Origin: an uncultured Candidatus Kuenenia sp.
GTDB taxonomy: Bacteria > Planctomycetota > UBA11346
DNA length: 64,000 nucleotides
Assembly (NCBI GenBank): GCA_964654285.1
Contig: CAZZJC010000001.1
Span: forward strand, 5,030-69,029
Reading direction: 5' to 3'
Notes under the pieces: generated by a model
Databases searched by the model: none
What the model was told of the DNA's origin: nothing
The model's input: the letters and a program-made list of their open reading frames with translations, nothing else
Shown here: positions 3,215-57,606 of the stretch, piece by piece
How positions within the stretch are numbered: position 1 is the first letter of the stretch
How the letters are laid out: the number at the start of each line of letters is the position of its first letter
Translations under genes and position numbers: made by a program

Positions 3215-3288
3215 GGCAATGCGGTTTCCCGGTGAATTGGGTCTGGTTTGGAGGCGGTACTGGAGGGCCAACCATCATCCCGGGATCT

Positions 3289-5841: not shown

Positions 5842-6018
5842 GCGGTGATGGCGGATGAGCTTGACGTTCGTGATCATGCGGGGTCTCCACCTGGAGGGGA
5901 TGGATAGGGGGTGCTTGGAATTCCCTCGAATCCAGTCGGATCCGGGCTTCCATGGGCGGCAGGACGGCAGCCATGCCGGCAACGGCATCCGGGGTCTGGG
6001 TGGCGATGGGTCATGTCG

Positions 6019-13371: not shown

Positions 13372-14655
13372 ATGCGCATCTGCCCAATCGGACTCGTCGG
13401 CTGGGGCACGGTCGGGGACGGCGTGGTGTCGATCCTGCGCCAGGACGCGGCGGTGCTGCGCGAGCGGGTCGGCCTCGACCTGCGCCTGAAACGCATCGTC
13501 ACCCGCACGCCGGGGCGGGCGCGCTCCGGCGATGCGCTGGGCGCGGTGGTCAGCGACCGCATCGAGGACCTCACCGGGGACAGCGAGATCTCCACCGTCA
13601 TCCATCTCGCCAACGGCCCGGCCGCGAAGCCGCTCATGGTGGCGCTGCTGACCGCCGGCAAGCGGGTGGTCACCGGCAACAAGGCGCTGATCGCCGAGCA
13701 CGGCGACGAGCTGTTCGCGTTGGCGCACCAACACGGTGGATCGCTCGCCTTCGAGGCCGCGGTCGCCGGAGGCATCCCGGTCATCGCCGCCCTGCGCGAC
13801 GGACTGGTCGCGAACCGGATCAACGCCATCCACGCGATCCTCAACGGCACCTGCAATTTCATCCTGACCATGATGGAGACCAAAGGCTGGGACTACGCCG
13901 TCGCCCTGGCCGAGGCGCAGCGCCTGGGCTATGCCGAGCACGATCCGACGCTGGATGTCGATGGTACCGACACCGCGCACAAGCTCGCCATCCTGACCCG
14001 CATCGCCTTCGCCTGCCGGGTGCCGCTCAGCTCCATCCGCACCGAGGGCATCCAGCATCTCGGCGCCGACGACATCGCCTCGGCGCGCACCATGGGCTGC
14101 CGCATCAAGCTCATCGCCACGGCGGCGCAGACCCCGGCCGGGCTCGATCTCCACGTCGCGCCGACCCTGGTGCCGCTCGACCATCCCCTGGCGGCGGTGA
14201 TGCGCAATTTCAACGGCATCTACATCAACGGATCGAACTCCGGGCCGCAATTGTTCACCGGCCAGGGCGCCGGCGCGGCGCCGACCGCCAGCGCCATCCT
14301 CGCCGACGTGGTCGACACCCTGATCGGTCGGGCCGCAGCGACGGCGGCGCAGTTCGCCTTCGTCCATCCGGCGGAGCCGCCGGCGCTGGCCGGCGAAGCC
14401 GACGAGGTCACCGGCAGCTGGGCCCGCTTCCACGTCCACGACCGCCCGGGTGTGCTCGCCGGCATCACCGAACGCTTGTCGCGCCATGGCATCAGCGTGG
14501 CCTCGATCCACCAGGGCCTGCCGACCTCGGCCGGCGCTGCCACGGTCGAGATCACCACCCATCCCGGGCGCGGCGGAGCCTTCCTGCTCGCGGTGGGCGA
14601 AATCGACCGCGCCGGACTCACCCTGAAGCCGACGACCTGCCTGCGGCGTTTGTAA
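13372..14655 (+). CDS. hom: Homoserine dehydrogenase
   Basis: MRICPIGLVGWGTVG... NAD-binding N-terminus, central catalytic domain, C-terminal ACT domain (FHVHDRPGVLAGITERL). Strong SD AAGGAGG 8 nt upstream of ATG 13372. The 5' portion of the 788-aa ORF (12289-13371) is antisense to the methyltransferase and is not called. Confidence 0.9.
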   Translation: MRICPIGLVGWGTVGDGVVSILRQDAAVLRERVGLDLRLKRIVTRTPGRARSGDALGAVVSDRIEDLTGDSEISTVIHLANGPAAKPLMVALLTAGKRVVTGNKALIAEHGDELFALAHQHGGSLAFEAAVAGGIPVIAALRDGLVANRINAIHAILNGTCNFILTMMETKGWDYAVALAEAQRLGYAEHDPTLDVDGTDTAHKLAILTRIAFACRVPLSSIRTEGIQHLGADDIASARTMGCRIKLIATAAQTPAGLDLHVAPTLVPLDHPLAAVMRNFNGIYINGSNSGPQLFTGQGAGAAPTASAILADVVDTLIGRAAATAAQFAFVHPAEPPALAGEADEVTGSWARFHVHDRPGVLAGITERLSRHGISVASIHQGLPTSAGAATVEITTHPGRGGAFLLAVGEIDRAGLTLKPTTCLRRL

Positions 14656-14710
14656 GCGGGGCTTGCGCCCCAGCCTGACTGCGCCGCTTTGCGGCTTGCG
14701 TGCTCCGCCC

Positions 14711-14776
14711 GTCCCCGCTGCGCGGGGATCTGCTGCGGCGACGGTGGCTGCGCCACCTGTCCCGCTGCGCGGGACC
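14711..14776. repeat. Two near-identical 7-bp-stem/3-nt-loop hairpins (TCCCCGC-TGC-GCGGGGA at 14712-14728; GTCCCGC-TGC-GCGGGAC at 14759-14775) plus a partial third copy; REP-like element or tandem terminator hairpins after hom
   Basis: Read directly from the sequence. Located 57-120 nt after the hom stop. No T-run follows. Confidence 0.4.
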
Positions 14777-15023
14777 AAGCCCGTCCCCGCTCACTCGCTT
14801 CGCTCCTTCGGGGGATTGCTCCTCGCGGGCTCTGCCCGCTACGCCCGCCAGGGACTCTCGCCCCTAGACCCGCACGGTCCTTCCGTGTGCACAGGTTCGA
14901 CCGCGTGCTTCAAACTTCCCTCGCTTACGAACCCAAGCGTCAGTCACGCCGCCGAACCAGCCAGGGTGGTCGGCTTGCGGGTCGTGACGATGCGATCCAT
15001 GCTTTGCATCAGGAAATACGCCC

Positions 15024-16019
15024 ATGCTCCTGCGACTCCGGCACCAGCGCCCCGACGGTGAACTCGACACCTACCACCTGAAATCCGGGCGTAGATACCA
15101 CATCGGCCGGGGATCGACCTGCGAGGTTCGCATCCTCGACCTCAAGCTCAGCCGCCAGCACGCGGCGATCGAATACAAGCAGGGCGAATGGCGGGTGCTC
15201 GACCTCGGCAGCACCAATGGCCTCAAGGTCGACGGCGACCACATGGCGGGTTCGGCGATCCTCAAGACCGGCACCACCATCGAGGCCGGCCACACCGCGC
15301 TCACGGTGGAACGCATCCTCGGCGACGATGAAGCAGACGAGATCGACCTGCCGCCACCGGCCCCGGCGGCCGAGATTCCCGCTGCCCGGCCCGCGCCGCA
15401 GCCGACGGCCCGCCCGGTCACCTCGCTGGAGGAGATCCCGGTCGCTGCGCGTTCGGCGTCGATTCCGGATGCTGCCGCGCCGGTGCCGTCTCCGATCCCC
15501 GCATCGCCGCCGGTTCTGGCCAAGCCCACGAGTCCGGTCGCGCCGCCGCACGCGGATTTCCGCACTCCCGCCCCGTTGCCGCAGGAACCGTTCCCGGGCG
15601 AAGGCCCAGCCATGCCGGTCCCGCGTCCCAGCGATGCCGGCGAGCATCACGCCAGCGACTGGAAGCGGAACCAGGACGAGACCCTGGCCCCGCTCCAACG
15701 CAAGGAGGTGCAGCCCAGCGTGGCCCCCGCGCCTGCGCCCGTGCAGCCGCCCGTCGCCACGCCTGCACCCATGCTGGACATGGAGGCGACCATTCCCCAG
15801 ATGCTGACGGCGCCATCGGCCGCGCCTGCGCCCGTGCCTGCCGCGCCTGCGCCCGTGCCCACCGCGCCGGCCGCCGCCGCCGAGGAGCGCACGTTCTACA
15901 TCACCGTGCTCGGGCGCCGGGTCGGTCCGCTCAGCCGGGCCGTCGCCAGGGATCTCAAGACGCGCGAGCTGAAGGGCGCACTCAGCCTGGCCGATCTGGC
16001 CGACTACCCATCGGCCTGA
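15024..16019 (+). CDS. FHA-domain protein with Pro/Ala-rich linker and small C-terminal domain (GYF/DUF4339-like, tentative)
   Basis: N-terminal FHA signature (YHLKSGRRYHIGRGSTCEVRILDLKLSRQHAAIEYKQGEWRVLDLGSTNGLKVDG). About 170 aa of low-complexity P/A-rich sequence. C-terminal FYITVLGRRVGPLSRAVARDL...LADLADYP. Confidence 0.75.
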   Translation: MLLRLRHQRPDGELDTYHLKSGRRYHIGRGSTCEVRILDLKLSRQHAAIEYKQGEWRVLDLGSTNGLKVDGDHMAGSAILKTGTTIEAGHTALTVERILGDDEADEIDLPPPAPAAEIPAARPAPQPTARPVTSLEEIPVAARSASIPDAAAPVPSPIPASPPVLAKPTSPVAPPHADFRTPAPLPQEPFPGEGPAMPVPRPSDAGEHHASDWKRNQDETLAPLQRKEVQPSVAPAPAPVQPPVATPAPMLDMEATIPQMLTAPSAAPAPVPAAPAPVPTAPAAAAEERTFYITVLGRRVGPLSRAVARDLKTRELKGALSLADLADYPSA

Positions 16020-16130
16020 ACGCCCGCCAGCGTCCACCGCCTCGACGACCCCGGTACCGATCGCCAGGACATCCTTGACGGAGTGGCTCCCGGTTCACCG
16101 TGGGTGTTCGTATCCGAGCGAAAGGTCCCC

Positions 16131-19100
16131 ATGTCCCAGCGTCCGACTTTGCACCGATCCGGATCGTCGTGGAGCCGGCTCCTGCTGTCCGCCCTCGTCG
16201 CGTCCGGGCTGGCCTGGGCTGGCGAGGTGGTGGTGCCGAGCACGCCGGTCGGACCGACCGCGCCCAACCCTGACGCCCAGGCCGCCGAGAGCGAGCGGCT
16301 CGCCAAGCAGTTGCCCCAGCGGTCGTGGCTGGCGGTGCGCGCCGATGGAAAGCTGTACTGGCAGGTCGATGGCGAACTGAAGTCCACCGCCTATCCGATC
16401 AAGGAAATCGACAACGGCGGCAATCCGCGCCTCGACACCGGCATCGGCGCGCTCACCGTCGACCGCCGCCTGGTCGCGGGCGACAGCAGTGTGCAGGCGC
16501 TGGCCCTGCTGCCGCGCCTGATCGAACACGCGGTCGCAGCCGGATTGAAGGCCGACGAGCTGATGCTGCTCGAAGGGCTCCTCACCGGGCCGCACTTGAG
16601 TTCCCCGACCCACCGCGTGCTGCCCGAAGGCTGCCTGGTGAAGTCGGCGGCCCCGGCGCGTCCGGCCGGCGAGCGCGAGGCGCTGGTCGCGGCGGCGAAG
16701 AAGGTCGCCGGAGCGCTCGCCGGCAGCGACCTCGATTCCCTCGGCCGGCGCACGCTCGAGGAAGTCCTCGACCGCCTCGGCCAGAACGATGTCGCCGGAG
16801 CCGAGGCCGACGAGTTCACCCCGTCCTTCGCGCGCCGGGTCATGCGCCATGGCTGGCTGCGCCAGGTCCTGCCCAGGAGCGACGCCGACGAGCAGCTGGA
16901 ACAGGCGGTCATCACCGCCGAGCGGATGCTGCCGGTGACGCAGTTCCTCGGCAAGGATGGCCAGGGCCGCGAGCTGCGCCTGGCCGAGGTCAGGAACGTC
17001 TTCGGCCTCGGCGGCTGGATCCTGCAGACGCCGGAACGGGTCTGCTACCTGCGTCCCGTGCCCCGGCCGGTCTTCTATGAGGCCCTGCCCGAGACCGGCC
17101 TGAACCTGGTGCTGGAGCTCGCCCCCGGATCCGACCCGGTGGCGGTCCGTCCGGAACCGGTGGCGGCCCGCCTGGTCAGCGGCAACCAGGTCGTCGCCTC
17201 CTGGCGCAACGGGAAGCCGTTGGAGGCCACGCTCGATGCCTGGCGCCGGGTCGTGCCGGTGCGCGGCCGCGGCATCGCGAACGATGCGGTGGCCGACATC
17301 ATGCCACCGCATCTGGCGCTGGCGGCGCTCAACGGCGACATGCTGGCGCTGGTCATGGGCAAGGACGTGCTGCGGCCGCCCAGGGATGCCTCCGACCGCG
17401 AATCCGCACGCTTCCTGGCCGACGCCGCGCGCATGCTGCCCGACGCGCCCAGCCTGGATCTCATCGGCGAATACCTCTTCCAGTACGTCTATGACAGCCC
17501 CGACAGCCGCTACCCGCAGCTCATCGGCAACAAGACCGTCAAGGGCGACATCCACCAGACCGCGGCCCAGACCATCGCCACCAGCGCCGGCGGCCAGTTC
17601 CGTGGCGACTGCGACGACCTGGCGGAACTGTACCAGACCATCGCCGAGCGGCAGGGCCGCACCGCGCATGTGATCAGCCTGCCCGGCCACGCGGCGGTCG
17701 CCTGGGCCGACCGCAAGGAGGACGGCCGCTGGCACGTCTACCTCCTGCAGACCGGCCCGAGCCTGGAGTTCGTCGCCCCGACGCTGCCGGAGGCCCTCGA
17801 GAAGACCTACAAGCGCTTCGAGGTCACCGAGACCTTCGACCCCAATTCGCTCGGCCTGCTGCTGCGTTTCAGCGGCGAGAACACCCGCTCGGCCTGGCGG
17901 CTGTCGTGGCGCATCTTCAGCGACGCCGACTACGCCCGCACCATGATCGATGTGCAGCGCGACTGGCACTTCCAGACCTATGCCCGCGGCATCAGCAAGA
18001 TGGAGGCGATGATCGCCAAGGGCGACAAGGACAACGCCAACGCGCGCGAACTCGCCGGCCTCGCGACCCACACCGGCCAGTACGACAAATCCGTGCGCTG
18101 GACCGTCGAAGCGCTCGCCAACACGCCGCAGCCGCTGAGCAAGTTCTACCTCCGCCTGGAACTGCTGGCGCACCTCTTCGACGCCAGCGCCCAGGATCCC
18201 GCCAAGCGGACCGAGGCCGAAGCCCTCGCCAGGGAACTGCTCGACCAGCAGATCCCGCAGCTGCGCAAGCAGCTCGGGCCATCCCTGGTCCAGGTCGGTC
18301 TCCAGCTCACCGGCACCCTGGCCCACCACAAGTCGCAGGCCCTGGCGGTGCGCGCCCTCGACCAGTGCCTGCAGAGCGCGACCTATTCCCTGATCCCCGG
18401 TCGCGATCCCCAGACCCTGCCCAGCCTGGCCGAGGACCTCAGCCGGTTCGCGACCCAGGTGAAGGACGCCGAGGGCCAGCGCGCCTGGCGCGAAGATCCC
18501 CGCCTGGGCCGGCTGCGCCGGATCCTGACCATGTACGCCGCCACCGCGACCGAGGTGCTCGCCGGCGCTCCGCGCGGGGCGATCACCGCCGATCCGGTGC
18601 TGCAGGACGCCGCCCGCCTGGTGCAGTTGTGGCTCAACGATCTGGCGTTCAGCGATGGCGAGGAACCCGGCGAGATCATGTTCCGCTACGCCCTGGCCGC
18701 CCGCTATTACGCCGCCGTGCTGGGTGAAAAGGATTTCGCCGCGCTGCTCAATGCTGCGCACCCGCCGCCGGCACCCGCCGCCGGCACGGCGGGCGCCGGT
18801 CCCGCTCCCGACCACGGCAAGCGCATCGGCGGCCTGGCGCAGCTTCCCCTCGACCTGCCCTGGATCCGCATCTCGCTGCCCTACTGGTTCAGCCGTCTGG
18901 CGGAGCAGTTCGCCAAGGATCGCGCCACCGTCGATATCGACGAGGTCAAGCGCCTCGGCCTGGCCTGCGCCGAGGCCTGGGGTGCGACCCGGGCGCGTGG
19001 CCTGGAGCACCCGCGCCTGCAGCACGAGGCGCACCTCGCCGCCGTGATCACCAGCCTGTTCGGCCGCGATGCCGATGGGTTGCGCAAATGCCTGCAATTC

Positions 19101-19415
19101 GTCAAGGCGAAGGGTGACAAGCGCCTGCGCGACGACACCGCGATGTGGCTCGGGGACAGCGCCCGCGCCCTGCCGCTCGACTGGTACGGCCAGGTCATCG
19201 ATATCTGGTGCGAGGTCCTGCACGACCGCCAGAATCCCGACGCGGGCTTCGACAAGGCCAAATGGTTCTGGATCGCCTGGCGCGCCTGGCTGTCCGGCGG
19301 CCATGACCACGCCCTGCTCGTCGCCGACCGCGCCGCCAAGCAGTTCCCCGGCGACCCGGCCTTCGCCGAGGAGGCCAAGTTCATGAAGGCGCTGCCGCGA
19401 CCCAAGAAGCCTTGA
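16131..19415 (+). CDS. Large secreted protein (~1,095 aa), mostly alpha-helical, with a transglutaminase-like Cys-His-Asp core
   Basis: Signal peptide after ATG 16131 (MSQRPTLHRSGSSWSRLLLSALVASGLAWAG). Motif GQFRGDCDDLAELYQTIAERQGRTAHVISLPGHAAVAWADRKEDGRWHVYLL has the spacing of transglutaminase-like cysteine-protease folds (Cys at nt 17609-17611, His at 17688-17690). GC3-rich frame. The 1,134-aa ORF on the opposite strand is judged to be antisense artefact. Confidence 0.7.
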   Translation: MSQRPTLHRSGSSWSRLLLSALVASGLAWAGEVVVPSTPVGPTAPNPDAQAAESERLAKQLPQRSWLAVRADGKLYWQVDGELKSTAYPIKEIDNGGNPRLDTGIGALTVDRRLVAGDSSVQALALLPRLIEHAVAAGLKADELMLLEGLLTGPHLSSPTHRVLPEGCLVKSAAPARPAGEREALVAAAKKVAGALAGSDLDSLGRRTLEEVLDRLGQNDVAGAEADEFTPSFARRVMRHGWLRQVLPRSDADEQLEQAVITAERMLPVTQFLGKDGQGRELRLAEVRNVFGLGGWILQTPERVCYLRPVPRPVFYEALPETGLNLVLELAPGSDPVAVRPEPVAARLVSGNQVVASWRNGKPLEATLDAWRRVVPVRGRGIANDAVADIMPPHLALAALNGDMLALVMGKDVLRPPRDASDRESARFLADAARMLPDAPSLDLIGEYLFQYVYDSPDSRYPQLIGNKTVKGDIHQTAAQTIATSAGGQFRGDCDDLAELYQTIAERQGRTAHVISLPGHAAVAWADRKEDGRWHVYLLQTGPSLEFVAPTLPEALEKTYKRFEVTETFDPNSLGLLLRFSGENTRSAWRLSWRIFSDADYARTMIDVQRDWHFQTYARGISKMEAMIAKGDKDNANARELAGLATHTGQYDKSVRWTVEALANTPQPLSKFYLRLELLAHLFDASAQDPAKRTEAEALARELLDQQIPQLRKQLGPSLVQVGLQLTGTLAHHKSQALAVRALDQCLQSATYSLIPGRDPQTLPSLAEDLSRFATQVKDAEGQRAWREDPRLGRLRRILTMYAATATEVLAGAPRGAITADPVLQDAARLVQLWLNDLAFSDGEEPGEIMFRYALAARYYAAVLGEKDFAALLNAAHPPPAPAAGTAGAGPAPDHGKRIGGLAQLPLDLPWIRISLPYWFSRLAEQFAKDRATVDIDEVKRLGLACAEAWGATRARGLEHPRLQHEAHLAAVITSLFGRDADGLRKCLQFVKAKGDKRLRDDTAMWLGDSARALPLDWYGQVIDIWCEVLHDRQNPDAGFDKAKWFWIAWRAWLSGGHDHALLVADRAAKQFPGDPAFAEEAKFMKALPRPKKP

Positions 19416-19813
19416 AACCCAGGGGTTTGCTACGTTGGCTGGATGGCGAATGGCGAAGACGGTGTTCTGACAGGATGCGGAAGCATGGAGAGGCGACAAT
19501 CGACCAGCCAGCCGATGTGAAGGAGATTAATCCTTGGCAGGTCGTGGTTCGGTGGGGAAAGACGGGTTTCATTATCGGCAGCTGGCATTGATAGCGCTTG
19601 CTCCATGATCACGAGGTTCCTTGCAATCCTGATCCATTTATCCCATTGGCTCGAAGAGACGGTGAGTTCATGGATTTGGGGTGGATGCGTTGCCTGTCGA
19701 AGTGATGGATTCGGTGCATAAGGCCATGGCATACACAGAATGCTTCATTGTTTTCAGACAGGGGTGCCGGGTTGCAGGGGGATTGAGGTTGTTCACGCGA
19801 ACCGATGTGGTTC

Positions 19814-21694
19814 TCACTCTCGTGACCGCTTCGCATCCAATGCCGTTGCCGATTCACCGAGGCAGTACAACCACGAGGGAGAATTCAGGTAAAGCCGGCC
19901 GCCGTGCGCGGTCAGTCCGGAGGTGCGGATAGCGTAGTAAAACCCGATGCCCTGATAAGTGGAACTGTCCGTTCCGAGGGCACCCCAGCGGCGCAGCGCC
20001 GGCTCGGCGGCGAACCTGGGGAAATACTTGCCGCTGATGTCCGGCGTGTAGCCGCGAGCCTGGATGATGTTGGAACCAGCCGGCTTGGGCTTTGCCGGGT
20101 CAGCCAGGTCGTACAGATTCACCGTCAGGGCCAGCATCTCATTGCCATCCTGCTTCTTGTTTTCCGGAAACGAGGCCAGCATCAGGTATCTGCCGGCGAT
20201 GATCGCGCTCGTCGGGCGACCGAGATCCGCCAGGAGCTTGCCGGTCTGCGCATCGATGACTTTGCCCTGCGCCAGCACCTTGTCCGACAGGGCGAACGGA
20301 CCCTGGCCCGTCCTCATTTCCGTTGCGATCCACTTGCCGTATTCCAGTCGGCGTTGGGTGTTGAAGCGCGCCGGGATCATCATCACGGGAGGGTTGTTCT
20401 GGTCTGAGCCGAATCCCTTGTACAGATGGCCGTTGAGGATGCAGGCGAAGCCGGCTCCCCAATCATGGCGTCCATGTTCCTCGGCCGGCAAGGGTTCCAA
20501 GGACTGGCCCGTCTCGGCGTCCACAACATGTCCAAGACCGGTCACCACGATGGCGCGAAGACCCGGGCCATCCGGGAGCCTGCCGAGGATCGGCGGTTGA
20601 TGGAAGCCGTGCCAGGCGGGCGCACCCCAGGCCGAGCCCACGGCTCGCGGGTCAAAGGTTTCCCAGCGCAACGCGCCGGTCCGCACGTCATAGGCGCGAA
20701 TGCTGCGATGCCAATTCCGGGCACGTTGTTCGCCAGGACTGGGCACCAACAGCAGGTCTTTCCACAGCAGGGGCGATTGATTGTGATCGACCGTACCCGG
20801 TTTCATCAAAGGATCGCGGAAGGCCCAGAGCCGTTTGCCGCTGGCCAGGTCGTAGGCCGCGATCTGGCCGAAGCCCAGCACGACATAGACCCGTTCCCCG
20901 TCGCTGACCGGACTGGCCATCACGTCGCTGATGCCGCCTGGCCAGTTGTTGAACACGCTGACACCGGTGGTCTTCTCGGCGTACTGCTCGAACAGGGATG
21001 GACCTTTGCGCCGGTCATTGGTGGCCTTGTTGTATTCGGATTCATTGCCGGCCTTGTACTGGGACCAGAGTTTCAGGTCCTGCTCCAGGGCGGGGATCGC
21101 TTCAGGCCAGGTCTTGGCGAAATGGACCTGCCAGGCTTTGAGTTGTTCGGTGATGTATTCGCCGAGCGGCGCGCGCGGGCCGATCGGCTGCTCGCGATCC
21201 CGATAGGTCGTTCCGGCGGCGAATCGAACGCGATTGTGCGCCAGGCAGCGTTCGAACAGGTCTTGCAAGTGAGCCGCCTTATCTGGGTCCGGAGTCAACC
21301 CGATGCTTTTGCGGTCGGCAGACAACGGCGGCAGGGCCATCAGCTTCAGTTCATCCTGCCACAGCACCTTGCCCGTATCGGCATCATAGCACACGACATG
21401 ATGCGGCGAATAGACGCCGATGATCCGTTTGCCGACCACGATGGGCTGGGCGTCGGTCCAGCCGGGATGCGGCACTTTCCACCGGATGTTCCTGGTTGTG
21501 CCGTCGGCTTTATCCGACCATTCACTTGGTGGGGTCGCCCCTGGATACCAGTTGTTGCCCTGCCCGGAAAAACCGACCGGATCGGTGGGTGAGGGTTTCC
21601 AGTCGGCGTGGCCGAAAGGCGCTGGATCAGCAGCAGGCAGACCACCGGCGATCAAGGAGGTGATGAGGAGTACATGTTTCATGGAATGATCCAT
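19814..21694 (-). CDS. PQQ-like beta-propeller repeat protein (paralog 1), secreted
   Basis: Signal peptide MKHVLLITSLIAGGLPA (alternative start 21682). PQQ-like repeats (NIRWK, PIVVG, VVCYDADTGKVLWQDELKL). Downstream of a GH29 gene on the same strand. Confidence 0.75.
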   Translation of the reverse strand: MDHSMKHVLLITSLIAGGLPAADPAPFGHADWKPSPTDPVGFSGQGNNWYPGATPPSEWSDKADGTTRNIRWKVPHPGWTDAQPIVVGKRIIGVYSPHHVVCYDADTGKVLWQDELKLMALPPLSADRKSIGLTPDPDKAAHLQDLFERCLAHNRVRFAAGTTYRDREQPIGPRAPLGEYITEQLKAWQVHFAKTWPEAIPALEQDLKLWSQYKAGNESEYNKATNDRRKGPSLFEQYAEKTTGVSVFNNWPGGISDVMASPVSDGERVYVVLGFGQIAAYDLASGKRLWAFRDPLMKPGTVDHNQSPLLWKDLLLVPSPGEQRARNWHRSIRAYDVRTGALRWETFDPRAVGSAWGAPAWHGFHQPPILGRLPDGPGLRAIVVTGLGHVVDAETGQSLEPLPAEEHGRHDWGAGFACILNGHLYKGFGSDQNNPPVMMIPARFNTQRRLEYGKWIATEMRTGQGPFALSDKVLAQGKVIDAQTGKLLADLGRPTSAIIAGRYLMLASFPENKKQDGNEMLALTVNLYDLADPAKPKPAGSNIIQARGYTPDISGKYFPRFAAEPALRRWGALGTDSSTYQGIGFYYAIRTSGLTAHGGRLYLNSPSWLYCLGESATALDAKRSRE

Positions 21695-21792: not shown

Positions 21793-22839
21793 TCATCGCC
21801 AGTGCCGGGCCAGTTCGTCCATGCGCTGGTAATACACCTCGGGCATGCCGCCATCGGCTTTCGGCCCCACATTCATGAGCAGATTGCCGCCCATGGCGCG
21901 CACGGCGTTATGCCGCTCCAGGAACCATGACAGGGGCTTGTAGCGTTCGTGGTTGGGGTCGTACGACCAGCCGCCGCAGGGCCAGATGTCGCACAGTTCC
22001 CACCAGCCAGACGGGCGACGGTGGGGAAGATGCAGTTCGGGCGTGTCGAAGTCGCCCACGCCATGCATGCGCGGGTTGATGACGATGTGGGGCTGGAGGG
22101 CGCGCAGCTCCGCGATCGTCATCACCGCAGGTCCGCCATCGAACCACAGCAGGTCGATCCGGCCGTACCTGGTCAGCAGTTCGGTGATCTGGCCGCGCAG
22201 GTAGGCATGGAAGGAGGCTTCGTGCCCCGGCGGTTTGGGCGGCAGGGATGCGATCTCCTCGTGATGCATACCGAAATGCTTGCGGCCGGGGGCGTTCGCC
22301 GGGTCCTCGCTGCCGAAGCGGAACGACATGTACTGTCGGTTGTAGTACCAGTCGGGCGGCGAGTAGTAGAGCCCGACCTTCAGGCCCTGGCGGCGGCAGG
22401 CCTCGACGTAGGACGCCACCAGGTCCACCCCCGGCAGGAATTGCCGCACGCCGAATACCCCGTGCTGGCTGGGCCATAGGGCGTAGCCATCGTGATGGCG
22501 CGTGGTCAGCACCGCGTAACGAAATCCCGCCGCCTTGGCGGCGGCGAGGATACGGTCGGGGTCCCACCGGGTCGGCCGGAAATCACGGGCCTGGGCGAAG
22601 TAGTCGGCCGGGGTGATCTGGGTGCCCACCCCGTCCATCCATGGCAGTTCGGCCATCATGCTCCACGAGAGGTCGCCCTTGCCGGAGACGGTGGAGATGC
22701 CCCAGTGCATGAACAGCCCCAGGCCGGCCGAACCGAACCATTGCGCCTCGGGATGGGAGGTGCGTTGGGCGTGCTCCGGCGATTGGGTCCGGATGCCGAC
22801 GGCGGCGTGTTGCGCTTCTGCCGTGCCAAGGTTGGTCAT
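21793..22839 (-). CDS. Alpha-L-fucosidase (GH29)
   Basis: FGLFMHWGISTV, YAVLTTRHHDGYALWPS, GLYYSPPDWYY, LLWFDGG. These are canonical GH29 blocks. Confidence 0.85.
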   Translation of the reverse strand: MTNLGTAEAQHAAVGIRTQSPEHAQRTSHPEAQWFGSAGLGLFMHWGISTVSGKGDLSWSMMAELPWMDGVGTQITPADYFAQARDFRPTRWDPDRILAAAKAAGFRYAVLTTRHHDGYALWPSQHGVFGVRQFLPGVDLVASYVEACRRQGLKVGLYYSPPDWYYNRQYMSFRFGSEDPANAPGRKHFGMHHEEIASLPPKPPGHEASFHAYLRGQITELLTRYGRIDLLWFDGGPAVMTIAELRALQPHIVINPRMHGVGDFDTPELHLPHRRPSGWWELCDIWPCGGWSYDPNHERYKPLSWFLERHNAVRAMGGNLLMNVGPKADGGMPEVYYQRMDELARHWR

Positions 22840-23818: not shown

Positions 23819-26179
23819 CTATTTGGCCGGCGGTGCGGTCGCCGGTTTGGGCTGGATGGTGATGGTGCGCACCGATGGGCCTCCTGGGCCCTCGGCGGTG
23901 AAGGTGTAGGTGGCCGGCTGGTCCAGGCGCAGGGCGTGTTCGCCTTTCGGTGGCACATCGCCGATGCCCGGCTCGATGCGGACCTTGGTGGCATTGACGG
24001 TCGACCAGGTCAGCTTGATCTCCTTGCCGGCCACCGGGCCGCCGTTCCAGGGCAGGGGATGCACGATGATGGCGGTGAAACCGACCTCGCCCGCGCGGCG
24101 ATAGCAGGCGGTGAGCAGATCCTGCGTCTGCTTGGGGCCGTTGAGGGGGTACTGGCGCTGGTCGACCTTGGCTTCGAGGGGCGCCAGCAGCGCGCGCGGG
24201 ATCGGGCCGAGATCGTAGAGCAGGGCGCTGAGGATCGGGGCCGAGTGGTCATGCAGGTTGGAGTCGACCATGTACTTGATCATCGCCTCGCGCTGCGTCC
24301 GGGCGGTGTCGGGATCGATCGCCGCCAGCGCGCTGAACGCGGCCCAGGGTTCCCGGCTCTTGGCCGCCTGGGCGAGGATCCTCGGCACGACCGGCTTGGC
24401 GGCGGGCCCGAGCGCCGCCAGGCGCGCCCAGGCGCCGTCGGCGTTCTTCTCGGCCTGGGCGATGAGCGCGTCGGCGTCGCCGGCGGGCGCAGGCGCTCCG
24501 GCCTTGCCGGCGATGCAATAGAGATGATCGAGCGAGCGGATGAACAGGCGGTCGCCGGCCACGGCGAACGGGCTGGCAAAGCTGAAGCACCACTCCCGGT
24601 TGGCGGGTTTCGGCCAGGAGAACCATTGGCTGAGCCGTCGGGTCTGGGCAGCCTTGTCGAGATCGGCGAACGGGGTCACCCGCAACTGATTGCTGGCCAC
24701 GAAGCGGCCATCGAGGGTATGCACCTTCATGAGGCCATTGGTGCCCAGGCCGTACACGTGGCCGCCCGCGATCGCCATGTGGTGCTCGGTGATCGGCACG
24801 GCGCCGCCGAACAGGCCGGTGACGACATTGCCGGTCTCGGCATCGAGGATGACGCCCTTGGCGCCCCCGAAGTAGAGCTTGCCGCCATGGTACAGCAGGC
24901 TGGAACAGCCGCCGGCAGCGTTGTCGTTGACCTTGTGCCACAGGACGCTGCCCGTGAGCGTGCTGCCCTCGAGCGCGAAGCGGATCGCGGCGGGCGGTTC
25001 GATCTCGGCCTTGCCTTTGCCCTCCCAGCCGCCGTGCTCGCCGCCGCCGGTCATGAACAGGGTGTCGGGCCGGTCGCTGTTGACGGCGATCATCATGCCG
25101 TTGTTCTTCCAGCCGACGATGGTCAACGGCCTGCCCTCGGGCAGCGTGTAGGCCGCAGGACCGGCGCACCAGAGCACGTCCTGGCTGCCCACGCGCAGCA
25201 CCACCGGCGAGACGAATTCGTGCACCCCGCCTGGGCGCTTGTGTTCCCACTTCAATGCGCCCGTAGCCCGGTCGAACGCGCGCACCATCCGGCCCAGGTC
25301 GCTGATGAGCAGGTTGCCGTGGATGATCGGTGAACGGGCCACGGCGCAGTAGTCATGCGGCCGCTCCGGCGAGAGCGCGTGCATCCAGCGCAGATTGCCG
25401 TCGAGGTCGTAGCTGGCATACACGCCCCAGGCGGTGGCGACGTACAGCGCCTGCCCGTCGGTGACCGGCGTGCCGAACACCTCGCCGAGCCACATCATGT
25501 CGTGGCTGCCCATGCGACGCCAGGTGTCCAGCTCGACCAGGGCCTTGCCTACTTCGGGGAACTTCTTGGCGAATTTCGGCATCCCGTAGTCGGAGAGCTT
25601 GCCGTCGTCGAACTTGCCATAGAGGTAGTTGGCGCCCCAGGTGAGCACGCCCATCGCGTCCATCCGGCGCTTCACCTCGGGATTGTCCTTGTCGGCGGAA
25701 TAATCGTGGAACAGCAGGTAGTAGTCGCGGATCCAGGCGAGGTGCTTGCGCCAATGCTCGCGGATCTGCTGGCGCGCGGCTTCGTCCTTGACCGTGAGGT
25801 GCAGGTGGTCGATCTGCTTCTCCCAGAGCAGCTTGCCGCTCTGGGTCGCATAGCAGGAGATCACCGGCAGATCATGCTGCCAGCCCGGCTCGCTCAGCAC
25901 GAACACCCGATCGGCGGTCACCGCCGGCGCGGCGCTGCCGAGGTTGGGCACCGCCACCTTCCAGAGCACGTTGGTCTCCTCGTTCCAGTACACCGGCGGC
26001 TGCGCATTGCGGTAGACGCCGCTGCGATCCCCGAAATAGCCGGAGATCTGGCCTCCGGCGCCGCCAGGCGGCGGCTCGGCCGACCACGCGACGGCAAGAC
26101 CGCAGGCGAAGGCCTGACCCATCAGGGCCAGCCTGCACACTCGGGTCATCGACGGGGCTCTGGTGATGGGGCGCTTCAT
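23819..26179 (-). CDS. PQQ-like beta-propeller repeat protein (paralog 2, divergent, ~790 aa), secreted
   Basis: Signal-like N-terminus MKRPITRAPSMTRVCRLALMGQAFACGLAVAWSA (starts at 26179 or 26149). Repeated propeller blades (VLWKVAV, KLLWEKQ, GNLRWMH, GALKWEH ...). Convergent with the AraC gene at 22927. Confidence 0.7.
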   Translation of the reverse strand: MKRPITRAPSMTRVCRLALMGQAFACGLAVAWSAEPPPGGAGGQISGYFGDRSGVYRNAQPPVYWNEETNVLWKVAVPNLGSAAPAVTADRVFVLSEPGWQHDLPVISCYATQSGKLLWEKQIDHLHLTVKDEAARQQIREHWRKHLAWIRDYYLLFHDYSADKDNPEVKRRMDAMGVLTWGANYLYGKFDDGKLSDYGMPKFAKKFPEVGKALVELDTWRRMGSHDMMWLGEVFGTPVTDGQALYVATAWGVYASYDLDGNLRWMHALSPERPHDYCAVARSPIIHGNLLISDLGRMVRAFDRATGALKWEHKRPGGVHEFVSPVVLRVGSQDVLWCAGPAAYTLPEGRPLTIVGWKNNGMMIAVNSDRPDTLFMTGGGEHGGWEGKGKAEIEPPAAIRFALEGSTLTGSVLWHKVNDNAAGGCSSLLYHGGKLYFGGAKGVILDAETGNVVTGLFGGAVPITEHHMAIAGGHVYGLGTNGLMKVHTLDGRFVASNQLRVTPFADLDKAAQTRRLSQWFSWPKPANREWCFSFASPFAVAGDRLFIRSLDHLYCIAGKAGAPAPAGDADALIAQAEKNADGAWARLAALGPAAKPVVPRILAQAAKSREPWAAFSALAAIDPDTARTQREAMIKYMVDSNLHDHSAPILSALLYDLGPIPRALLAPLEAKVDQRQYPLNGPKQTQDLLTACYRRAGEVGFTAIIVHPLPWNGGPVAGKEIKLTWSTVNATKVRIEPGIGDVPPKGEHALRLDQPATYTFTAEGPGGPSVRTITIQPKPATAPPAK

Positions 26180-26408
26180 GATTCCTCTGTGGTGGGTGGT
26201 CGAGGCTCGCGGCTCAGGGGCAGGTGGCCGCACCGGCAGCCTGCTGGGGGATCGGGGTCGCATGACCCAGGCGCGGTTTATACCCCAGGGCCGGTTCCGA
26301 CGTTGCCGCCAACCCGAGGCTGTCCTCGGCCGCCGCGGTCGATCCCCGCGCAGCAGGCCGGCCGCAGAGCGGCTCAGCCGGGCCGAGGTGCAAGGCCCCC
26401 CCCGGTCA

Positions 26409-37419: not shown

Positions 37420-38507
37420 GCCGAATCTCCGGCGGCAGGAGCGGTCCCGTTGGCTGGCCCGGCGGGGGCCCGTCGCAGCATGCGGTCGAGGATGTGCACC
37501 AGGAGACCGGCCCCCATGATCAGCGAGGCCAGATAGATGCTGTATTGGAAGCGATCGTGCACGACGGTGAACACGCTGACGGTCTGCGCGCCCTGTTGGA
37601 ACGAGGACTGGTAGAGGGTCCAGCCCTGGTGGCGCAGCGGCTGGTTCATCGAGATCACCACCCGGCGGGTGGTGCCGTCGACGGTGAACTCGACTTCGGA
37701 CTGGTAGGCCTTCGCCATCCCGGTTCCGGGATGCAGGTCGCGGGTGAACTTGAGCAGGCGGACGTTGAAGGGCAGCGGGGTGACCGCCGGGCGGAGGCCC
37801 AGGCGGTAGGTCTGGCCCTGGTGGTCGATGGTGGGTGAGGATTCGTAGGCGAGCACGTTGACCTCGCGCCCGGAGGCCAGCAGCACCAGGCCGGGCTGGT
37901 TGTCTGATGGCTCGGGATTGGAGGGGAGGGCCTCCAGCCGACGGCCCACCAGGCGGGCGTTGTGGTGATGGGTCACGACGGTGAGCGGCAGAGCCAGGGC
38001 GGGGTGCTTCAGGGTGGCGCCCGGAACGAGCAGACCCTCGCCAAAGCGGGTGAGTCGCTGGTTCTTCCCATCCGACGAGGACACCACCAGCTCATGGTGG
38101 CGGTATGAGACCATCTCGGCCCCGGACTCGCCTTCCGCCAACGCGAGCGAGCCTTCGCGGCGGAACGCCCCACCGATCAGGCCGGCCGCGAGCAGCAGCA
38201 CCACGCCGACATGGAGCAGGGTCAGGCCCGGCCAGGTCAGGCCGCGCCTGGTGCCCAGGTGGGCGATCAGGTTGATCGCCATCAGCGCGAAGGTGGCGCG
38301 TCCGCCAGGCAGCGGCAGCCAATCGAAGGCGAAGAAGAACCAGGCGGAGAACCAGCGTTCCTGCGCCTGGTAGAGTCCCAGGTCGACCTGGGCCAGGGTT
38401 CCCACCACCACCAGCACGAACAGCCATGCATTGGCGAAGGCAGCCGGATGCGGACTGGCAAGGATGGTCAGCCAACGCGGGCTCTCGGAATCAGCGGGCA
38501 GGCTCAC
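37416..38507 (-). CDS. resB: Cytochrome c biogenesis protein ResB/CcsB
   Basis: ResB-like topology (N-terminal TM WLFVLVVVGTLAQV, large periplasmic domain, C-terminal TMs). Likely GTG start at 38505-38507 overlaps the upstream stop as GTGA. Stop overlaps the ccsA start as ATGA. Confidence 0.7.
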   Translation of the reverse strand: MSLPADSESPRWLTILASPHPAAFANAWLFVLVVVGTLAQVDLGLYQAQERWFSAWFFFAFDWLPLPGGRATFALMAINLIAHLGTRRGLTWPGLTLLHVGVVLLLAAGLIGGAFRREGSLALAEGESGAEMVSYRHHELVVSSSDGKNQRLTRFGEGLLVPGATLKHPALALPLTVVTHHHNARLVGRRLEALPSNPEPSDNQPGLVLLASGREVNVLAYESSPTIDHQGQTYRLGLRPAVTPLPFNVRLLKFTRDLHPGTGMAKAYQSEVEFTVDGTTRRVVISMNQPLRHQGWTLYQSSFQQGAQTVSVFTVVHDRFQYSIYLASLIMGAGLLVHILDRMLRRAPAGPANGTAPAAGDSA

Positions 38508-39160
38508 TCGCTGGCACCCGGCTTGAGCGAACGGCACAGCGCCAGGAAACCCTGACGCGTCGTTTCCAGCTTGGCGGCCGGCGCATCGATCTTGACGAAC
38601 AGCACGCCCGAGGGCACCTGGGCCATGGCAGCCAGGATCCCCTTCGCCGTCGCATCCGCAGGCCTCAGTTCGCACCACGAGAACGGTGTGGCGCCGGTGC
38701 GGTCCTCGGTCAGCTCCTTGGCCAGGTCCGCCGCCACGACCGGCGCCAGTCCGACCTGGCCACGCCAGCGGTTCAGGTTGGCGAGCGGATCGGACATCAT
38801 CGGATTCGCCGGCCAGAGCGAGATGGCGCAGGTCGCTTCACCTGCCGCGAGAGTGAAGCGGCGCACGTTGCCCTTGTCCGAAGGCACTTCACGCCAGCCC
38901 TCGGGCAGGGTCAGGCCGAGGCCGGCCAGGGCGGATCCCGCCGGCTTGACATTGGGTGCCATGGCAGGCGCCGGTTTCGGATCCGTGCCTTGGGCATGGG
39001 GATCGGCAGCGTGGACATGCGGATCAGGTGCCGCCGCCTGCACCGAGTGCTCGGCGTAGGAGGTCGGTTCGCGATCGGTGACCGTCAGCAAAACCAGGGT
39101 CGCGGCGGTGGCGCCGAGGGCGAAGGCCACCAGGTGGGAAGGCCAGGAGGATGCGCTCAT
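38504..39160 (-). CDS. Membrane-anchored hypothetical protein (no CxxC), translationally coupled to resB
   Basis: Internal start MSASSWPSHLVAFALGATAATLVLLTV (single TM) followed by a ~190-aa soluble domain. 4-nt overlaps on both sides. Confidence 0.5.
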   Translation of the reverse strand: MSASSWPSHLVAFALGATAATLVLLTVTDREPTSYAEHSVQAAAPDPHVHAADPHAQGTDPKPAPAMAPNVKPAGSALAGLGLTLPEGWREVPSDKGNVRRFTLAAGEATCAISLWPANPMMSDPLANLNRWRGQVGLAPVVAADLAKELTEDRTGATPFSWCELRPADATAKGILAAMAQVPSGVLFVKIDAPAAKLETTRQGFLALCRSLKPGASE

Positions 39161-39384: not shown

Positions 39385-39577
39385 GGGGTGGAACCATAGC
39401 CCGGATCCCGCGAGCGCCACCGGGGAATGGCGCGGGGTTCCCACGCCGCCGCAAAAGCCGGCCTTCCTGGGAGCCCCGGGGTCGCGCCGGCCGGAAAAGC
39501 GGCATCCGCAGGATGCCACCAACCGGCTTTTGCGGCGGCCAGGCGGGGTCCCCGTGCTCATCCCCGGTTCACCGGAT

Positions 39578-53679: not shown

Positions 53680-53805
53680 GTCTGGCCTTCCGTGACGGGT
53701 TGTGGCAGGGGCGATGTACCCGTCACTGCTTCCGGGTGTTTTCATGATTCACGGCCGGGCCTTCCAGGCTGTTGCCTTTGGATGCATCCGGTTACTTTTT
53801 GGCGC

Positions 53806-54864: not shown

Positions 54865-57606
54865 GTGGCGCAACTGCTCCAATCCGGTCAGCACCTGGGC
54901 GGCTACGGCATCGAGTCGTTGATCGGCAAGGGTGGCATGGGCGAGGTCTACCGGGCGCGGCAATTGAGCATGGACCGCCAGGTCGCGCTCAAGGTGCTGT
55001 CGCCCCGGCTCGCGCGCCAGGATCCCAAGTTCGCGCAGCAGTTCCGCGACGAGGCGCGCGCCGCCGGCCGCCTGAGCCACCCCAACATCATCGCGGTGCA
55101 TGATGTCGGCACCGCGCCGCATCCCGTGGACGGCGAGACGATCCATTATTTCTCGATGGAACTCGTCGACGGCGAGTCGGTGAAGGAGGTGCTCCAGCGC
55201 GAAGGCACCTGCCCGCGCGACCTGGTCACCTCGATCATGCTCGCGATGTCCGAGGCGTTGGTCTACGCCGAGGCCCAGCACATCATCCATCGCGACATCA
55301 AGCCCGACAACATCATGCTCACCTCGAAGCAGGTGGCGAAGCTGGCCGACCTCGGCCTGGCGATGCGGGTCGGCGACGAGGCCGGCGCCGACAAGGACGA
55401 GCAGGGCCGTTCCAAGGTGATGGGCACGCCGCTCTACATGAGCCCGGAGCAGGCGCGGGCCACGGCGCTCGATGCGCGCAGCGACCAATACAGCCTGGGT
55501 GCGACGCTCTACCACATGCTGACCGGCCACGCGCCGTTCACCGCCCCATCGGCCAAGGAGATCATGAAGGCGCATGTGTTCGCGCCGGTGCCGGACCCGC
55601 AGGAGGAGAACCCCGGCATCAGCCAGCCGTGGCGCGATCTCTGCATGCGTCTGATGGCGAAGTCGCCCGAGGACCGCTTCCCCACCGCGACCGCCCTGCG
55701 CGACGCGGTGCGCCAGATCGCCTACGGCGACCAGCGGTCGGGTGCGACCGCGCGCCAGCGCACCCCGCGCCCGCTGCGGTCGCGCAGCGGTTCGCCCTGG
55801 GCCGGCCCGCTGATCCTGGCCGGAGTGCTGGTCGCCGGTGCGATCGTCCTGTTCGTGGTGATGGACCGTGCGAAGCCGGAGCAGCCGGACGCGCTGACCC
55901 TGGTGCCGGTTCCGGATACGGCCGAGGTCACCCGCCAGGCCGCGGCCACCGCCATCGCCGCCCTGCCGGCTGATAATGCCCAGGCGGTGGGCGCCCTGGA
56001 GCGGCTGCTCGGCGAAGCCCGCTTCAGCACCGGCCCGGCCCGCGCGCTGCTCGAGGCCGAGCTTTCCCGCCGCCGCGCGCCCCGCCCGGATCCGGCGGCG
56101 AACGACGCCAAGCTGGCCCAGGCCGAGCTCCTCGCCTCCGATCCGGGCCGTCTCGCCGAGCTGCGCAAGCTGCTGCCGGCGCTGGGCGGCCTCGACCTCG
56201 CCCCGCCGCAGCGGACCCGGCTCGACGCGCTGCGCGCCAAGGTCGACGAGCAGATCCGCCGTGCCAACGAACGCTGGAAGGCGAATGTCGCCACGGCCGC
56301 GACCCCGGCCGCCTGCGACGAGCTGCAACGCGAACTCGCCGCTGCGCCCGAGTGGATCCAGCGCGACGAAGTCACCCGCATGCTGGCGGCGCGGCGGCTC
56401 GCCCTGGCGCCCAAACCACCGCCACCGGTCGACCCTGGCCCGGCCTGGCGCGCCTTCGCCGCCGAGATCGACCCGCTGCGCGGCACGCCGGCGCTCATCG
56501 ACCTCGGCACCCGCCTGGAATCCCTCGGCGACCGCCTGCCGCCCGGGCCCGATCGCGAACTCGGCCAGGTGCTGGTCTCCGATCTTTCGATGCTGATCGG
56601 CACGGCGGAAAAACGCCTGCAGAACCACATCCAGAAGGAGACCCCGACCGTCCTCGTCCGCTTCGGCGCGAAGGATCTGCGCAAGGTCCGCCTCGTCCGC
56701 CTGAGCACCAAGGAGCTGGCCACGGCCGCGCCGGACCAGCCCAACGTCGCCGCCACCGCCCAGCCGCGCACCTCGCTCGATCTCGACTGGCGCTCGCTGC
56801 TCGACCGTGCGCTGAACACCGGCGTCGACAAGGACGCCGGCACCCTCGCGGCGGCGTGGCTGTGGTTCTGGCGCCTGCCCGAGGCCGACACCGCCCTGGC
56901 CGCGCTCGGCGAGGACCCGTTCGGGCGCGCCCTGCGCGCCTATGAGCGCCATGCCCGGCTGTTCCCGCAGGTGGCGAATCCGCCGCTGCGCGCCGACGAC
57001 CGCGTCGAGTTCAGCTACCGCTTCGATCCCTGGGACCACGCCCTGGTAGGCGACTTCCAGGGCGAGGGCCTGACCCTCGGCGCCAACGGGCTCTTCTGGC
57101 AGACCGGGGCGAGCCGCCCCGATCGCGACGCGGGCGAGGACAGGCTGCCCGGCGTGCGCTGGAAAGGTCTGCTCGCCGCGCCGGCCACGGCCGAGCTGCA
57201 ATGCCGGGTGGAGGCCGATTCCGTGCTGGCGATCGGTCTCGCGGTCGATGGGCGGGCGGTGCGGACGGTGCTCAACCTGCGCCAGGGCACCACCGCGATC
57301 ATCGCCACCGCCGCGACCGGCCGCACCTTCGCCATCGTGCCGATCACCGGCGGCGGTCCGATGCTCGGCCGGGACCGGTTGCTGACCTTGGGGTTCGTCC
57401 TGGGTGAGGACGGCCGGGTCGAGCTGAGCCTCGACGGCAGACCGCTCGCCACCGCCGCGCCATTGCAGCTGCCCGCCGGACGTCCGGCCACCCTGGTCAT
57501 GCAGACCCTGCAGACCCCGGGTACGGCGGAACGCCCCAGCCGGAGCGCCTGCGCGATCCAGAACCTGGTGCTCAAGGGCCGGTTGCCGGGGTCCGCGCAG
57601 CCCTGA
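54865..57606 (+). CDS. Membrane-spanning Ser/Thr protein kinase with ~580-aa C-terminal extracytoplasmic region
   Basis: Hanks kinase motifs (GKGGMGEVY, ALKVL, HRDIKPDNIML, DLGLA, GTPLYMSPE). TM helix WAGPLILAGVLVAGAIVLFVV. Probable GTG start at 54865. Confidence 0.85.
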   Translation: MAQLLQSGQHLGGYGIESLIGKGGMGEVYRARQLSMDRQVALKVLSPRLARQDPKFAQQFRDEARAAGRLSHPNIIAVHDVGTAPHPVDGETIHYFSMELVDGESVKEVLQREGTCPRDLVTSIMLAMSEALVYAEAQHIIHRDIKPDNIMLTSKQVAKLADLGLAMRVGDEAGADKDEQGRSKVMGTPLYMSPEQARATALDARSDQYSLGATLYHMLTGHAPFTAPSAKEIMKAHVFAPVPDPQEENPGISQPWRDLCMRLMAKSPEDRFPTATALRDAVRQIAYGDQRSGATARQRTPRPLRSRSGSPWAGPLILAGVLVAGAIVLFVVMDRAKPEQPDALTLVPVPDTAEVTRQAAATAIAALPADNAQAVGALERLLGEARFSTGPARALLEAELSRRRAPRPDPAANDAKLAQAELLASDPGRLAELRKLLPALGGLDLAPPQRTRLDALRAKVDEQIRRANERWKANVATAATPAACDELQRELAAAPEWIQRDEVTRMLAARRLALAPKPPPPVDPGPAWRAFAAEIDPLRGTPALIDLGTRLESLGDRLPPGPDRELGQVLVSDLSMLIGTAEKRLQNHIQKETPTVLVRFGAKDLRKVRLVRLSTKELATAAPDQPNVAATAQPRTSLDLDWRSLLDRALNTGVDKDAGTLAAAWLWFWRLPEADTALAALGEDPFGRALRAYERHARLFPQVANPPLRADDRVEFSYRFDPWDHALVGDFQGEGLTLGANGLFWQTGASRPDRDAGEDRLPGVRWKGLLAAPATAELQCRVEADSVLAIGLAVDGRAVRTVLNLRQGTTAIIATAATGRTFAIVPITGGGPMLGRDRLLTLGFVLGEDGRVELSLDGRPLATAAPLQLPAGRPATLVMQTLQTPGTAERPSRSACAIQNLVLKGRLPGSAQP

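Follow-up and report, generated by a model that had tools for sequence, protein, structure and literature searches.

Two adjacent genes in the window

We analyzed two neighboring genes in a 64,000-nucleotide (nt) stretch of DNA from an uncultured Candidatus Kuenenia sp. (GenBank assembly GCA_964654285.1, contig CAZZJC010000001.1, positions 5,030 to 69,029), referred to below as the window. The upstream open reading frame (ORF), at 15024–16019 (331 amino acids, aa), encodes a protein with an FHA domain, and the downstream ORF, at 16083–19415 (1110 aa), encodes a large unannotated protein that is probably an exported thiol enzyme with a Cys-His-Gln active site. Both ORFs are real and lie on the forward strand, at the coordinates given by an earlier reading made from the nucleotide letters alone (the sequence-only reading), which had described them as a co-directional pair 64 nt apart. 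That distance does not hold for the probable true start of the large gene, the ATG at 16131 (M17), which gives a protein of 1094 aa: database copies (P0001, 1094 aa) begin at M17 and an AAAGG motif is found 5 nt upstream, so that the gap to the stop codon of the FHA gene becomes 111 nt. Residue numbers of the large protein are counted throughout from the listed GTG start at 16083.

The G+C content of the region is about 70%, and many long overlapping ORFs are spurious for that reason. Antisense ORFs on the reverse strand at 16095–19499 (1134 aa) and 15009–16037 (342 aa) cover both genes without independent support and are typical of sequence with about 70% G+C. A promoter and terminator scan of both strands of positions 14500–19900 gave no match; its silence says little, because not one terminator was called anywhere in these 5.4 kb, although shuffled sequence gave some.

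A family of predicted exported proteins in Planctomycetota and Myxococcota

The large protein has no match in Pfam, NCBIfam, PADLOC, or the sequences of the Protein Data Bank (PDB), and neither of the two proteins matched the PADLOC models of anti-phage defense at E up to 0.01. A word-indexed search recovered 21 full-length homologs of the large protein, and an exhaustive profile search recovered 433 clusters (50% identity) at E up to 1e-3, with 218 at E up to 1e-30. A genome scan located more than 80 genomic loci of the family, nearly all in metagenome-assembled genomes (MAGs) of Planctomycetota and Myxococcota, with at most 4 paralogs per MAG. Multi-copy genomes include the JALHRW01 MAG (L053, L073, L078, and L084) and those carrying the locus pairs L010 and L083, L014 and L074, and L009 and L033; their 2 to 4 paralogs are diverged, being 30% to 47% identical to the query, which suggests diversification of specificity. 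The records CAMCMZ01 and CAMCAC01, both labeled “Candidatus Kuenenia stuttgartiensis,” carry loci L010, L083, and L066 at 65% to 72% G+C, and their taxonomic labels look wrong, because the G+C content of Kuenenia is about 41%.

Two homologs are labeled as TPR repeat proteins by JGI. In five long, distant family members that were scanned against Pfam, the core domain described below is fused to true TPR_12 or Sel1 arrays and is accompanied by no enzymatic domain. A search with a profile of the core (A3) brought back no more than six fragments, none of which linked the family to an annotated one.

The signal peptide predicted by the sequence-only reading is supported by a hydrophobic N-terminal segment of the large protein, MSQRPTLHRSGSSWSRLLLSALVASGLAWA, whose hydrophobic 12-mer has a mean of 2.2. 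An equivalent segment is present in 91 of 97 full-length members, as scored by a heuristic rather than by SignalP, and no other membrane segment was found. The family as a whole thus appears to be exported. Some members, in the Myxococcota clade, carry a lipobox-like LAC motif.

Predicted structure and active site of the large protein

The full-length AlphaFold model of the large protein, based on a 21-sequence alignment, has a predicted local distance difference test score (pLDDT) of 82.2 and a predicted template modeling score of 0.77. In this model, a disordered N-terminus holding the signal peptide (residues 1–62) is followed by a mixed alpha/beta region (63–430), which has no family match in Pfam, by a compact core (approximately 486–606), and by an all-helical C-terminal half (609–1103), in agreement with the extensive helical repeats noted by the sequence-only reading. 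A Foldseek search with the full-length model returned TPR proteins only, at E-values of 2.8e-3 to 2e-2 and probabilities up to 1.00 but low TM-scores, and Pfam TPR models did not match the large protein of the window. On the strength of the model, the C-terminal half looks like a TPR-like alpha-solenoid of about 500 residues.

The core consists of a helix (510–523) followed by strands 528–533, 536–544, 550–555, and 561–565, and contains the motif RGDC510DD...LPGH536AAVAW. As modeled, the helix begins with C510, in a region where pLDDT is about 88–93, the second of these strands begins with H536, and Q556 stands directly after, or at the end of, strand 550–555. Papain-like enzymes have the catalytic His on a beta-strand after the Cys helix and a third residue, which may be N, Q, D, or E and sometimes H or S, on the next strand (PMC10318531). 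In the model, the Cys, His, and third residue of the large protein would occupy the positions that characterize the papain-like/transglutaminase-like superfamily (Pfam clan CL0125).

Conservation was counted in 141 family representatives at no more than 50% identity. Cys at position 510 and His at position 536 are each present in 138 of these, D509 and D512 each in 140, and position 556 is occupied by Q (103 representatives), H (21), or D (17) and by no other residue; H491 and Q492 are also nearly invariant. Judged by these alignment counts, the conservation of C510 and H536 is far beyond chance. The Cys and His of the transglutaminase-like Cys-His-Asp core proposed by the sequence-only reading are thus retained in nearly all representatives, whereas no Asp after the His is: D543, which may be the residue that was meant, is E, D, or R in the family, and the conserved polar position on the next strand is that of Q556. 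The Cys codon, placed at 17609–17611 by that reading, actually occupies the coordinates listed in Table 1.

Table 1. Features of the two genes and of a candidate partner kinase in the window
Feature	Coordinates	Strand	Basis
FHA-protein gene (FHA domain, Pro/Ala linker, GYF_2-like module)	15024..16019	+	ORF, Pfam, architecture of orthologs
FHA domain, residues 25–88	15096..15287	+	Pfam PF00498; intact phosphothreonine-binding residues
C-terminal module of about 45 aa, truncated GYF_2-like	15882..16016	+	Near-invariance among orthologs; Pfam scores of orthologs
Gene for predicted exported protein of 1094 aa, unannotated family (probable start)	16131..19415	+	ORF; start of database copy P0001; 433 family clusters
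Predicted Sec signal peptide, residues 17–46, probable cleavage after AWA	16131..16220	+	Hydrophobicity heuristic
N-terminal mixed alpha/beta region, residues 63–430	16269..17372	+	AlphaFold secondary structure, pLDDT mostly 70–95
Predicted papain-like/transglutaminase-like core, residues 486–606, best conserved part of the family	17538..17900	+	Model topology, conservation, weak matches
Codon of C510, predicted nucleophile, motif R-G-D-C-D-D	17610..17612	+	Model and conservation
Codon of H536, predicted general base, motif L-P-x-H-A-A	17688..17690	+	Model and conservation
Codon of Q556, predicted third polar residue of the triad	17748..17750	+	Model and conservation
C-terminal TPR-like alpha-solenoid (predicted), residues 609–1103	17907..19391	+	All-helical model; Foldseek matches to TPR proteins
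Candidate partner kinase of the FHA protein (Ser/Thr type, 913 aa)	54865..57606	+	Pkinase E 4e-47

Relationship of the core to known families

To place the core among known families, we relied on sub-threshold matches obtained by different methods. Pfam models of Transglut_core were matched by 2 of 28 diverse family members (best E 0.044) and Transglut_core2 by 1 member; these were the only recurring Pfam group, every other family being matched by a single member. A comparison by hhalign with an alignment of proteins combining Transglut_core2 and TPR_9 gave P 0.0013, in one comparison, with H536 aligned to the conserved His. Foldseek searches with a separate AlphaFold model of residues 432–645 returned, among the top 50 matches, 3 XPC entries, 3KD4, and about 20 menin entries. 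According to the literature, XPC/Rad4, menin, 3KD4, and Transglut_core2 all belong to the transglutaminase-like “cluster III” of papain-like proteins. The Pfam model BTLCP had no match at E up to 5 among the 28 family members.

Several observations weigh against a transglutaminase-like enzyme. The large protein has no significant profile match to any transglutaminase or papain family; Transglut_core2 (PF13369) matches the family in register but below threshold (E 0.18–0.24; 11.3–11.7 bits against a Pfam cut-off of 23.5), and the PDB sequence-profile searches (profiles A2 and A3) returned nothing relevant, with a lone match at E 1.6 attributable to chance. The separate model of residues 432–645 is poor (pLDDT 56), and its Foldseek matches have E-values of 0.17–1 and probabilities of at most 0.54; the search with the full-length model is uninformative on the core, because TPR proteins alone were returned. 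Furthermore, several members of the subgroup (menin, XPC, and Transglut_core2 proteins) are non-catalytic scaffolds. Although the large protein has no match above threshold, the sub-threshold matches agree in both register and subgroup. A Cys-His-Gln core of the transglutaminase-like/papain-like kind is accordingly the reading that we prefer, and we regard the fold itself as very probable. As no existing family fits, the large protein is best described as a new family within a known superfamily.

Comparison with individual families shows partial similarities only. In its predicted mode of action, the large protein comes closest to periplasmic proteases such as LapG. The bacterial transglutaminase-like cysteine proteinases (BTLCP) LapG and HvyA are periplasmic, have a papain-like/transglutaminase fold with Cys, His, and a polar third residue, and carry acidic residues beside the nucleophile, all of which is likewise predicted for the large protein; in LapG, acidic residues near the active site bind Ca2+, and the invariant D509, D511, and D512 resemble such a site by analogy. 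However, LapG is a small single-domain protease with a Cys-His-Asp triad that works with LapD and a large adhesin, whereas the mature large protein has about 1,060 aa, an additional alpha/beta N-terminal region, a TPR-like arm of about 500 aa, and mostly Gln as the third residue, and combines the lack of a BTLCP match with the absence of LapD-type or adhesin-type neighbors. Proteins of the SirB1/YchA type, with Transglut_core2 and TPR_9, provide the best, albeit sub-threshold, sequence match and share the order of a transglutaminase-like domain followed by TPR, but they are cytoplasmic, have about 270 aa, and lack a Cys at the aligned position, in contrast to the large protein, which is predicted to be exported and keeps the Cys. 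The function of Transglut_core2 proteins is unknown (PMC10318531).

Menin (PF05053), a papain-like domain within a TPR-containing scaffold, accounts for the most numerous Foldseek matches (best root-mean-square deviation, 3.6–3.7 Å over 116 columns). It is eukaryotic and nuclear, and the E-values of 0.5–1 amount to an analogy of architecture, not to demonstrated homology; menin proteins carry Ser or lack the Cys, and human menin has no catalytic Cys (PMC10318531). The PNGase/Rad4-XPC group (PF03835 and PF01841) contributes three XPC entries to the Foldseek top 10 as well as weak Transglut_core matches. The triad of yeast PNGase is C191, H218, and D235, to which the spacing in the large protein (26 between Cys and His and 20 between His and the third residue) is similar; these proteins are nevertheless eukaryotic and cytosolic or nuclear, with Asp as the third residue, and none matches the large protein significantly. 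The putative Parabacteroides protease 3KD4 (BDI_1141), match number 4 in Foldseek (E 0.25), is bacterial and has an N-terminal beta domain followed by a transglutaminase-like core, but it lacks a TPR arm, and its sequence shows no detectable similarity to the large protein. It is listed in the transglutaminase-like superfamily (PMC4866520).

The FHA-domain protein

The architecture proposed for the upstream gene by the sequence-only reading, an FHA domain with a Pro/Ala linker and a small C-terminal domain, was confirmed. The FHA domain is recognized by Pfam PF00498 (E 2.6e-14; 53.8 bits against a cut-off of 20.7) and retains intact phosphothreonine-binding residues (G28-R29, S43-R44-Q45-H46, and N65-G66), which are invariant among orthologs (alignment A4). 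It is followed by a Pro/Ala-rich linker (approximately residues 100–285) and by a C-terminal module of about 45 aa, RTFYITVLGRRVGPLSRAVARDLKTRELKGALSLADL, which is nearly invariant among orthologs and duplicated in tandem in some. The resemblance to DUF4339, now GYF_2 (PF14237), that had been suspected holds in part: several orthologs match at or just under the Pfam cut-off (E 9e-6 to 9e-5; 22.5–25.8 bits against 25.8), covering profile positions 1–27 of 50 only, whereas the copy in the window has no Pfam match at E up to 10. Orthologs with the same architecture form 77 clusters at E below 1e-34. The protein is predicted to be cytoplasmic because it lacks a hydrophobic segment (highest 19-residue Kyte-Doolittle mean, 0.82).

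The NCBIfam models of the FHA regulators FhaB/FipA, GltG, TagH, and OdhI match the protein over the FHA region only (E 1e-11 to 1e-5), and none of the scores comes near its equivalog cut-off (e.g., 44.7 bits where 125 are required). The protein also differs from these regulators in having no membrane segment, no type VI secretion or gliding-motility neighbors, and a distinctive GYF_2-like module.

Gene neighborhoods

The position of the FHA gene relative to the large gene was assessed in the 67 homologous loci for which 1.5 kb or more of upstream sequence was available, using tblastn and phmmer with the FHA protein or its domain. An FHA gene stands directly upstream only in the contig of the window itself (L001) and in L003, a relative that is 87% identical, where the FHA protein is 75% identical to that of the window; the arrangement is absent in about 65 of the 67 loci. 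A truncated FHA copy was found in L004 and L010, contigs from the same MAG, and an unrelated FHA-kinase fusion lies 4 kb from the 40%-identical paralog of the large gene in L083. In L076 (47% identical; L076:2096-11073), an FHA ortholog is located 1.3 kb downstream in convergent orientation, and two Ser/Thr-kinase genes are located just upstream of the large gene. L076 is the only locus outside the genus of the window with phospho-signaling genes on both sides. At the P0003 locus, a kinase gene lies downstream in convergent orientation.

Elsewhere, the large gene is preceded by DUF374, BipA/TypA, or various further genes. The commonest neighbor, the translational GTPase BipA/TypA, is encoded divergently upstream in about 30 Planctomycetota loci (e.g., L006:533-2476 and L069:3272-5650), with no obvious functional meaning. 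In approximately 9 Myxococcota loci (L002:8866-9953, L044, L047, L049, L057, L065, L068, L075, and L077), a SirB1-like gene encoding Transglut_core2 and TPR_9 lies divergently upstream of the family member; in L002, a glutaredoxin gene stands between the two. The SirB1-like neighbor has the same layout of a transglutaminase-like domain and TPR, yet lacks the Cys. These divergent BipA/TypA and SirB1-like/glutaredoxin genes were all that a search for conserved neighbors pointing to a function brought to light. An enrichment of kinase and FHA genes around family members was considered and rejected: only 4 kinase ORFs were counted in the 713 kb of flanking sequence, or roughly 0.5% of genes, a share that probably does not exceed what is usual in these kinase-rich phyla.

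The orthologs of the FHA protein have other conserved neighbors. In five of six other genomes sampled, the FHA gene is followed by a gene for an orthologous protein of about 700 aa (L088:6001-11522, L089:6001-10949, L091:5001-10437, L092:5001-9325, and L093:5001-10688), and a squalene/phytoene-synthase (SQS_PSY) gene follows within 1–2 genes; the large gene is absent from all six contexts. The ~700-aa proteins are 34% to 39% identical to one another (the L093 version is shorter, with 490 aa), have no Pfam match, and, like the SQS_PSY gene, have no copy in the window. Nor are they diverged versions of the large protein, to judge from an hhalign probability of 0.4%. The FHA gene and the gene for the ~700-aa protein, with SQS_PSY nearby, look like a real conserved FHA module. 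In the sixth genome (L090:6001-9750), a kinase is encoded 49 nt downstream of the FHA ortholog and is orthologous to the kinase of the window (38% identity over the full length, E 2e-158), which suggests that FHA protein and kinase form a pair whose genes are about 39 kb apart in the window. This kinase is the only Ser/Thr protein kinase of the window, as the sequence-only reading had recognized.

The remainder of the window includes four genes for paralogous PQQ_2/BamB-like beta-propeller proteins of 620–810 aa, all on the reverse strand (19814–21694, 23819–26263, 45311–47545, and 51748–53745), interspersed with alpha-L-fucosidase genes (3289–5988 and 21793–22839) and AraC-type regulators. 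ORFs 395–3271 (reverse strand; 958 aa) and 38426–42073 (forward strand; 1215 aa) have no Pfam match at E up to 1e-4 and may be either genes or artifacts of the high G+C content.

Proposed mechanism and competing explanations

We favor, with moderate confidence, the explanation that the two genes are functionally independent and adjacent by chance in the genus of the window, the large one encoding an exported Cys510-His536-Gln556 enzyme and the other a cytoplasmic phosphothreonine reader. The large protein would be exported by the Sec pathway and, in some relatives, anchored as a lipoprotein. Its central domain, with the Cys510-His536-Gln556 triad, would be an active thiol enzyme (peptidase, amidase, or transglutaminase) with a protein or peptide of the periplasm or cell envelope as its substrate, and the TPR-like solenoid of about 500 residues may serve as an arm binding the substrate or a partner. 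By analogy with LapG, the acidic residues D509, D511, and D512 around the Cys may bind Ca2+. The FHA protein would read phosphothreonine in the cytoplasm and work with a Ser/Thr kinase, plausibly the one encoded at 54865–57606.

If the core has a transglutaminase-like fold, it could instead be a non-catalytic periplasmic adaptor that uses the TPR arm and a degenerate active-site pocket to bind its partners. Menin, XPC, and Transglut_core2, which gave the closest matches in fold and profile, are indeed non-catalytic or uncharacterized, and menin as well as the proteins with Transglut_core2 and TPR_9 share the order of a papain-like domain followed by TPR. Those scaffolds, however, have lost the Cys (menin, PMC10318531; the SirB1-like neighbor has none at the aligned site), whereas about 98% of the 141 divergent representatives retain the Cys, the His, and a polar third residue, along with the nearly invariant H491 and Q492, a signature of selection on catalysis that makes the adaptor unlikely. 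We consider it quite unlikely that the C...H...Q pattern is not a papain-like triad at all but part of a different fold, for instance, a metal site formed by the D-C-D-D motif and His residues, with coincidental weak matches. Every profile and fold match is below its significance threshold, and the acidic motif in which the Cys sits could coordinate a metal; against this, four independent methods agree on subgroup and register, the confident full-length model puts Cys, His, and Gln on the N-terminus of a helix, the next strand, and the strand after, and the transglutaminase-like protease LapG likewise has acidic residues beside its nucleophile, where they bind Ca2+.

The sequence-only reading had raised the possibility that the two genes encode a signaling or secreted-effector pair. 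In such a pair, the FHA reader could, for example, regulate how the precursor of the large protein is expressed, exported, or handled in a phospho-dependent manner. The genes are co-directional, 64–111 nt apart, with no terminator-like site between them, and the arrangement is kept in the 87%-identical relative; the kinase genes in L076 and at P0003, together with the convergent FHA ortholog in L076, point in the same direction. As a further point against full independence, an FHA ortholog lies less than 2 kb from the large gene in two lineages (the genus of the window and, in convergent orientation, L076), which exceeds what would be expected of a random single-copy gene and makes some residual linkage possible; it is on this account that we leave a pair any probability. 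The pair is nonetheless very unlikely, because the gene order is not conserved, the outcome that the sequence-only reading had itself named as contradicting it, and because the two products are predicted to reside in different compartments. In addition, FHA orthologs have other conserved neighbors, the density of kinase genes in the flanks is probably not above the usual, and the missing terminator says little, given the silence of the scan over the whole region.

Implications

For the FHA gene, its adjacency to another gene in kinase-rich genomes of high G+C content is not evidence of a signaling module unless the adjacency is conserved; the likelier partners of its product are the kinase encoded at 54865 or, in other genomes, the ~700-aa protein linked to the squalene/phytoene-synthase gene. 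A more far-reaching proposal, to which we assign a low probability, is that the large protein represents an undescribed exported enzyme family that is confined to Planctomycetota and Myxococcota. It would be the counterpart, with catalysis intact, of the menin/SirB1 “transglutaminase-like + TPR” scaffold, would modify envelope proteins by cross-linking, processing, or deamidation, might be gated by Ca2+ through the D-C-D-D motif, and, in the genus of the window, could have come under an FHA/Ser-Thr-kinase circuit.

If the favored explanation of the large protein is true, a fold, an active site, and a cellular compartment could be assigned to approximately 430 clusters whose present label is “hypothetical” or “TPR repeat protein.” The family would provide a catalytically intact bacterial example of an architecture known from the non-catalytic menin and SirB1, and a candidate thiol enzyme for envelope modification, in many cases with several copies per genome, would be added to what is known of Planctomycetota and Myxococcota.

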